A DNA stretch of 64,000 nucleotides, taken from NCBI RefSeq assembly GCF_003018235.1, contig NZ_CP027437.1. One strand, given 5' to 3'. The DNA comes from Escherichia coli. GTDB taxonomy: Bacteria > Pseudomonadota > Gammaproteobacteria > Enterobacterales > Enterobacteriaceae. Below, in pieces: positions 57,520-57,649 of this stretch (positions are counted from its first letter, which is position 1; each line of letters begins with the position of its first letter). The translations under genes and the position numbers were made by a program. The notes below the pieces were generated by a model. That model had not been told where the DNA came from and searched no databases. It saw only the letters and a list, made by a program, of their open reading frames with translations.

Positions 57520-57570
57520 AATCCGGCTGATAGCTTATAAATCCGGTGATGTCCGGTGACTAAAAACCAT

Positions 57571-57602
57571 AAAAAAACCCGCCAATCAAGTGATTAGCGG
57601 GC
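57571..57602 (-). terminator. rho-independent terminator downstream of tRNA-Pro
   Basis: Minus-strand sense AAAGCCCGCTAATCACTTGATTGGCGGGTTTTTTT: hairpin plus T-run directly 3' of the tRNA. Confidence 0.7.
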
Positions 57603-57649
57603 TTTTCGTGTCTGAAACTGTTATTTCCGGTGGTATCCGGTGGGCGATT

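Follow-up and report, generated by a model that had tools for sequence, protein, structure and literature searches.

The window, that is, the whole 64-kb stretch of Escherichia coli DNA that we analyzed, contains a 10.3-kb insertion next to a tRNA gene. The order is yejO (44629-47220, + strand), the insertion, proL, and yejM (57801-59561). The insertion and the genes that matter here are as follows.

57650-57726, - strand: proL, encoding tRNA-Pro(GGG), the integration target.
47332-57646, no strand assigned: phage satellite (PICI) of 10.3 kb, carrying the repeat boxes, the terminator, the set B repeats, int and alpA described here.
56190-57431, - strand: int, P4/IntS-type tyrosine integrase of 413 amino acids (Pfam Arm-DNA-bind_3, Phage_int_M and Phage_integrase), with the arm-DNA-binding domain at the N terminus.
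55852-56085, - strand: open reading frame of 77 codons between int and alpA, with no family assignment; in E. coli, it is always found together with int and alpA.
55478-55684, - strand: alpA, encoding a 68-amino acid winged-helix protein of the AlpA/excisionase family (Pfam Phage_AlpA/HTH_17; PHROG 'excisionase and transcriptional regulator').

The island genes listed are all on the - strand: int, the 77-codon open reading frame, alpA, DUF4222, a RepA-like helicase gene, a second integrase-like gene, perC, and a fusion of a ClpP protease and a major capsid protein. In gene content, known here from sequence, the island has the properties of Gram-negative PICIs at the yejM-narP site: a size of ~8-12 kb, a terminal int, alpA, a replication module, capsid-related genes, perC, a single orientation, and a fixed att site. 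Four yejM-luxR PICIs (EcCIATCC25922, EcCIED1a.1, EcCI11128 and EcCI11368.1) have been catalogued (Fillol-Salom 2018, Table S1, PMC6092414), and we found little literature on proL/yejM islands beyond that supplementary table. The island is an uncharacterized instance of a known design, within a satellite family that has already been catalogued.

Three other features of the island are outside the main subject of this work. The second tyrosine recombinase-like gene (50981-51994, 337 amino acids, Int_N and Phage_integrase) is in the middle of the island beside perC and has no obvious att site. Directly downstream of the RepA-like helicase gene, at 52238-52429, are three copies of a CCTCACTTTTACTCCTCACTTTTT-like sequence (CCTCACTTTT iterons) at intervals of 83-85 bp; judging from their sequence and position, they are likely the replication origin of the satellite. 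Last, a direct repeat of ~90 bp (48054-48142 and 50603-50690, 84-85% identity), GC-rich with an A-run and a T-run, is found directly downstream of the protease-capsid fusion gene and again directly downstream of perC.

A first-pass annotation of the window had drawn attention to five short direct repeats that bracket the proL terminator and run up to the 3' end of the tRNA gene. We found all five where they had been placed, all on the + strand. The terminator is between them, and the last repeat ends 7 bp from position 57650. We refer to these repeats as boxes, or set A.

57626-57643, + strand: core-proximal block of set A, two copies of TCCGGTGG (57626-57633 and 57636-57643) 10 bp apart, reading CCACCGGA on the tRNA/int strand; candidate AlpA or recombination directionality factor (RDF) boxes.
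57572-57607, - strand: island-borne intrinsic terminator for proL, between the two set A blocks.
57522-57559, + strand: core-distal set A block of three boxes, TCCGGCTG(A) (variant, 57522-57530) and two copies of TCCGGTGA (57542-57549 and 57552-57559).

Four of the boxes are exact copies of TCCGGTG(A/G) and the fifth is the TCCGGCTG variant, all between 57522 and 57643. Their start-to-start distances are 20, 10, 74 and 10 bp, which puts them on a single face of the helix. The nearest box is no more than 7 bp from the 3' end of tRNA-Pro(GGG), and the boxes are 4-24 bp from the integration junction. There are nine matches to TCCGGTGR in the 64 kb compared to 2.9 +/- 1.7 expected, and four of the nine are inside 102 bp. 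Only three places in the window (57542, 57626 and 55703) match the phased dimer TCCGGYG-N3-TCCGGYG exactly. The hairpin that separates the two blocks has a stem of 16 pairs running from 57607 to 57572, followed by a U-run (-31.5 kcal/mol, z = -5.3). It stands in place of the native proL terminator, which is now at 47282-47312, beside the far junction.

The boxes came with the island. The annotation had proposed a comparison with an empty proL flank, from which island-borne repeats would be missing. In the island-free strain ATCC 8739, the yejO terminator is joined straight to proL and the repeats are missing. Of the 5,426 complete E. coli genomes that we searched, 447 had DNA like that at 57440-57647, and ~4,980 of 5,425 (~92%) matched only from position 57648, that is, from the tRNA, onward. 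Thus, what lies leftward of the 3' end of the tRNA, repeats included, is island DNA. By their sequence and placement, the repeats are genuine, island-borne, functional-looking sites in the attL arm.

The boxes are not the place of recombination. It had been suggested that they mark the true integration junction, and that the crossover be mapped by aligning both junctions. The alignment could be done and pointed elsewhere, to the following sequences.

57647-57664, no strand assigned: att core on the tRNA side, ATTTGGTCGGCACGAGAG, the 3' end of proL plus 3 nt, defined by comparing empty and occupied sites.
47323-47331, no strand assigned: partial att core, GCACGAGAG, at the junction on the yejO side (far junction), where the displaced 3' end of the tRNA gene lacks 5 bp (GTCGG).

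The sequence found at both junctions of the window is GCACGAGAG, at 47323-47331 and, in the tRNA 3' end, at 57656-57664. Duplication of the full core of ~18 bp, ATTTGGTCGGCACGAGAG, is seen in Z1323HEC0108, NE1092-2, L014 and L024, and a synthetic 'intact' far junction matched Z1323HEC0108 at 100%. What is duplicated is the 3' end of the tRNA gene and not the boxes. On these alignments, the crossover is within the tRNA 3' end, outside the boxes.

At the far junction, the displaced 3' end of the tRNA gene has nested microdeletions, all abutting GGTCGG^CACGAGAG (47316-47331 in the window; also L004 and L117-L121, and L005, L011, L017 and L022). The far junction is intact in Z1323HEC0108 and in O157 NE1092-2. 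It is missing 1 bp in OkiPb01717 and O103 ML775, 2 bp in FORC_042, 4 bp in UTME-2 and most O111 and O26 islands, and 5 bp in this window. Erosion of the far junction is comparable in other genera. To map the crossover directly, we looked for the excised attP junction, which had no exact match in viral contigs or metagenome contigs; a tandem pair in Pectobacterium polonicum carries a deletion and was uninformative. It is possible that the nested 0-, 1-, 2-, 4- and 5-bp deletions mark the position of integrase cleavage, that they record abortive excision, or that they reflect selection for immobilized islands.

A partial echo of the boxes at 47534-47547 had also been noted at the other end of the island. 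The sequence is there (TCCGGTT at 47540). We rejected it as a counterpart. The match is weak and isolated, ~205 bp away from the junction and thus outside the ~125 bp of far arm common to relatives, and it is in cargo-specific sequence that is absent from UTME-2. The repeat that truly recurs at the other end was overlooked in that annotation. It is TTAGTTATACG, which we call set B.

57464-57517, both strands: set B, four copies of TTAGTTATACG, at 57464 and 57478 on the + strand and at 57495 and 57507 on the - strand, ending ~30 bp before the int ATG; putative integrase arm-type sites.
47393-47415, - strand: set B pair (CGTATAACCAAACGTATAACTAA) on the int-distal arm, 60-85 bp from the far junction, 96% identical to 57494-57519.

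There are six matches to TTAGTTATACG in the window compared to 0.6 expected. Among related islands, the type of set B repeat (TTAGTTATACG, TTAGCTATACG, GGGACTAG or TAGGCATA) tracks residues 1-85 of Int. The comparison of islands L011 and L015 illustrates this. The boxes of the two are identical and their integrases are 98.7% identical over residues 86-238. In contrast, their N-terminal domains are just 64.7% identical, and set B is swapped, TTAGTTATAC for GGGACTA. In addition, a set B pair of the matching type was present 60-85 bp inside the island at 8 of the 8 far junctions found in relatives.

We used these comparisons to ask which repeats behave as integrase arm-type sites. The TTAGTTATACG repeats co-vary with the N-terminal domain of Int, and theirs is the only class of repeat that recurs on the far arm of attP. 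The boxes do neither: they were unchanged in the L011/L015 domain swap, and there are no TCCGGYG boxes on the far arm. We therefore rejected the boxes as arm-type sites of Int. Based on the presence of TTAGTTATACG on both arms and its tracking of the arm-binding domain, we infer that TTAGTTATACG is the integrase arm-type site.

In the published catalogue, a pair of TTAGTTATACG repeats is given as the 'att site core' for the yejM-luxR PICIs (Fillol-Salom 2018, Table S1, PMC6092414). The crossover in proL is ~65 bp from the TTAGTTATACG repeats at the far end and ~140 bp from them at the tRNA end. Our results suggest that the published att core is really an arm-type repeat. The TCCGGYG boxes are not described in that work, and the crossover is not placed in proL.

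The layout of this arm is conserved. We scanned one genome per species for homologues of Int and found ~35 in the Enterobacterales that are 55-83% identical to it. Nearly all are encoded directly downstream of tRNA-Pro(GGG), in ~25 other enterobacterial species. The order from the tRNA to int is the same in ~30 elements: tRNA 3' end, two or three set A boxes, terminator hairpin, three set A boxes, two direct and two inverted set B repeats, and the int ATG. The sequences of set A and set B vary between elements and the arrangement is constant. The three-site core-distal block is present in all the proL-family relatives, and the hairpin between the two blocks is present in all relatives and also in CP4-57. 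The core-proximal block has three copies in UTME-2, MDP9-27 and Z1323HEC0108. This anatomy and its constancy can be read directly from the elements.

The same layout is known from the prophage KplE1 (CPS-53), which is integrated at argW. Its attL has five sites (I1-I5) for the RDF TorI, in blocks of two and three, which were mapped experimentally between the end of argW and the arm-type sites of IntS (Panis et al. 2010, PMC2951348). The IntS arm-type sites overlap the intS promoter, and the sites in attL are those through which TorI and IntS exert repression on the int promoter (PMC2951348). In the K-12 sequence, we found the GTTCG sites of KplE1 and then, abutting the intS ATG, a set of two direct and two inverted repeats (GGGTAAAAA, GGATAAAAT, TTTTACCC and TTTTTACCC). 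That is, both elements have the core, two repeats, a spacer, three repeats ~10 bp apart, two direct and two inverted arm-type sites, and the int ATG. The core-proximal block of the proL island is in the position of TorI sites I1-I2 and the core-distal block is in that of I3-I5. IntS is 30% identical to the Int of the window (E 5e-62) and has the same Pfam architecture (Arm-DNA-bind_3). TorI and AlpA are both small winged-helix proteins. There are also differences. The KplE1 motif is GTTCG and not TCCGGYG, and TorI can barely be aligned with AlpA (E 0.03). The torI gene is at the opposite end of the prophage from attL. In contrast, alpA is near attL and has the same boxes in front of it. KplE1 has no terminator between its blocks. 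Binding of the RDF was demonstrated for KplE1; for the proL island we deduce it.

The boxes have those properties of an RDF array that can be read from sequence. They are between the core (57647-57664) and the arm-type-like repeats (57464-57517). They are direct repeats in the same orientation about one helical turn apart, with five copies on the + strand. They are borne by the element and conserved in position in ~30 relatives, and the element encodes a small protein of an excisionase family, AlpA. The first-pass annotation had described the boxes as typical of sites for a recombinase or an accessory factor near an att core. The first of these, taken as integrase arm-type sites, failed both tests above. 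The second is favored: the match in layout to the footprinted attL of KplE1 argues that the boxes bind a recombination accessory factor.

The candidate for that factor is AlpA. Among the open reading frames scanned, only AlpA matched an excisionase family, and its gene is 1.75 kb from attL. A copy of the box dimer is directly in front of it.

55703-55719, + strand: TCCGGCG-N3-TCCGGTG dimer just upstream of the ribosome-binding site of alpA, matching the att repeats in motif, phase and strand.

This is the sole exact phased dimer in the 64 kb besides the att pairs. A dimer of (A/G/T)YCGG(A/T), in two or three copies 10-11 bp apart, is upstream of alpA in UTME-2, O121, MDP9-27, L007, L009, L011-L015 and L031. 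MDP9-27 has three boxes upstream of alpA and three at att. We built a matrix from the alpA-upstream sites only (11 elements). In the 143 bp of the attL of the window it gave 4 hits, compared to 18 in 21 kb of island DNA taken as background. In elements from outside E. coli, the same matrix found at most one att site each. The E. albertii-type elements (L005 and L087) have att repeats (ATCATCGTT) with no echo upstream of alpA. O121-type islands, the commonest partner of the AlpA allele of the window, encode an AlpA that is 95.6% identical to it, and three of their five att boxes are TATCGG(A/T) and not CACCGGA. If AlpA binds both, it would need to recognize a loose YCGG(A/T)(A/T) core.

We looked for the AlpA allele together with another integrase or at another att site. 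By blastn against 5,426 E. coli genomes, no match outside proL was listed, and three hits with odd coordinates that we fetched were all at proL. The contigs from IMG/VR either begin only at the int ATG or are interrupted by an IS element. The boxes are physically linked to int, so their being inherited together does not by itself tell whether AlpA or the non-arm part of Int binds them.

Other repeats near alpA and in the cargo may belong to different regulators. A near-perfect palindrome of 40 bp (AAAACAGTACCTACCGTTTT/AAAACGGTACCCACTGTTTT, 55750-55789) is ~65 bp upstream of alpA and is kept in UTME-2 and in O121 variants. From its sequence, it could be an operator at which some other regulator acts, and possibly the site targeted in helper-phage induction. 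A TCCGGCGG/TCCGGTGG pair at 50809-50825, on the same strand as the att boxes and with 9-bp spacing, is within the perC coding region and may be a chance occurrence or an internal AlpA site. In the E. albertii-type proL islands L087 and L088, GGAGCCAATTT occurs three times in 11-bp phase between int and alpA (3660-3700). It is absent from the island in the window and, as far as its sequence indicates, is a candidate array for a different regulator.

Genetic data are available for a related satellite. AlpA of EcCICFT073 activates its own promoter and has no control over Pint; when it is overexpressed, excision and replication follow in an int-dependent manner. In that work, AlpA of PICIs is presented as an activator (PMC6092414). 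EcCICFT073 and the yejM-luxR PICIs are among the closest known systems to the island of the window: the element type, the insertion site and the organization (int, alpA, replication, perC, capsid) are the same, and the AlpA known from them is autoregulatory and triggers int-dependent excision. EcCICFT073 also has a 10-bp-phased motif, G(A/G)(A/C)ACAA, common to its att arms (542/552 and 11761/11771/11781) and the region upstream of its alpA (2156/2166). The AlpA allele is unrelated to that of the window, Int is 25% identical, the motif differs, and the boxes are on both arms. We also noted at least six GA(A/C)ACAAC-type repeats in 10-bp phase directly after the int stop codon of EcCICFT073 (L122, 1880-1945), of the motif family of its att arms and alpA upstream region.

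CP4-57 of K-12 (ssrA-intA-alpA) is another relative. It carries the founding AlpA, and its IntA is 55% identical to the Int of the window. Its arm is organized in the same way, with two repeat blocks separated by a terminator, and with TAGGCCCA repeats, paired and arm-type-like, ahead of intA. It differs in target (the tmRNA gene), in its motifs and in its AlpA sequence, and the dimer upstream of its alpA is AACCAA whereas its att repeats are GAAGTCCGAA.

Based on the recurrence of the dimer upstream of alpA, the single match to an excisionase family, and the genetics of EcCICFT073, we read the boxes as AlpA sites. We consider it somewhat better than even that the five TCCGGYG repeats are boxes for the RDF of the island, most probably the 68-amino acid AlpA, in the int-proximal arm of attL of a proL-integrated PICI. 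For the protein that binds the boxes, and for the effect of its binding, this reading is an interpretation of sequence.

It is possible, but unlikely, that integrase itself binds the boxes, as a second class of arm site or as an accessory to its core-binding domain. The boxes are 4-7 bp from the core, and iterated sites near the core are typical of tyrosine integrases. In addition, in the O121-type islands the boxes, the att arm and the N-terminal half of Int have all changed together, although AlpA remains 95.6% identical. However, the swap between L011 and L015 altered the arm-binding domain and the TTAGTTATAC repeats and left the boxes unchanged, and the far arm has the arm-type pair and no boxes. 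Int also has no evident reason to bind an identical dimer ahead of alpA, and the equivalent positions in KplE1 are sites for the RDF and not for Int (PMC2951348). A different protein of the island or the host, for example the product of the 77-codon open reading frame or a nucleoid protein, is a poorer candidate still. The attribution to AlpA is indirect, and that reading frame is a constant companion of int and alpA in E. coli with no family assignment. Against it, its product has no DNA-binding signature, and there is no homologue in the elements outside E. coli that keep CCGG-type boxes. Box sequences differ among elements of one host species, which argues against a host factor, and by eye we saw no match to the IHF consensus near the boxes. 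We think it very improbable that the repeats are neutral local duplications with no function. The sites are short and the proximal block has two or three copies depending on the strain, but the number of blocks, their phasing and their position are kept across genera while the sequence turns over. The identical motif at alpA and the statistics are also strongly against chance.

The boxes could also be mainly transcriptional, with AlpA or another regulator governing read-through from the strong proL promoter past the terminator, or the int promoter, and with recombination secondary. They do bracket a terminator that separates the co-directional proL and int. AlpA of Pseudomonas aeruginosa is a Q-like antiterminator that bypasses a downstream intrinsic terminator (PMC7969949), K-12 AlpA is reported, as cited in PMC6092414, to raise intA expression, and TorI and IntS of KplE1 act on the int promoter through attL. 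We regard this as unlikely nevertheless. A promoter scan of the region around the boxes found no sigma-70-like promoter at threshold, and the P. aeruginosa AlpA element is between the -35 and -10, a geometry that differs from that here (PMC7969949). AlpA of EcCICFT073 left Pint activity unchanged (PMC6092414), and KplE1 has the same two-block arrangement with no terminator. A combined function can be imagined, although we would give it little weight: AlpA at boxes flanking the terminator would couple excision to transcription, in that polymerases from the host tRNA promoter would pass into int by Q-like antitermination. If so, integrase would be supplied from a host promoter only when the island is integrated and only after induction by the helper phage.

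The arrangement that we favor, with AlpA as the RDF that binds the boxes, resembles that of several phages. P4 Vis, 186 Apl, P2 Cox and lambda Xis (X1-X1.5-X2) are small helix-turn-helix or winged-helix proteins that act on head-to-tail repeats about one turn apart, between arm-type sites and core. Each has a dual role, in recombination and in transcription. In lambda, it is the int-distal arm that carries the Xis sites. We know of none of these systems in which the sites bracket a tRNA terminator, and their sequence families differ. The following course of events would fit AlpA as the RDF. A helper phage would switch on alpA. AlpA would then fill the boxes, whose phasing puts them on one helical face, and bend the arm. 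Int, held by its N-terminal domains at the TTAGTTATACG sites on the near and far arms, would be able to contact the core sites within the 3' end of the tRNA gene, and excision would be favored. Through the boxes ahead of alpA, AlpA would control its own expression. The candidate AlpA boxes may thus serve both excision and autoregulation.

A satellite of this kind occupies proL in ~8% of complete E. coli genomes. Our results give a testable map of the recombination sites of this common satellite, in which the crossover core, the arm-type TTAGTTATACG repeats and the probable AlpA boxes TCCGGYG are told apart. The concept itself is not new, but the map can be used for annotating island boundaries and for engineering or immobilizing PICIs. 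Since, to our knowledge, no separate xis gene is known for these PICIs, the sites described here suggest that PICI AlpA, a known activator, doubles as the excision directionality factor.
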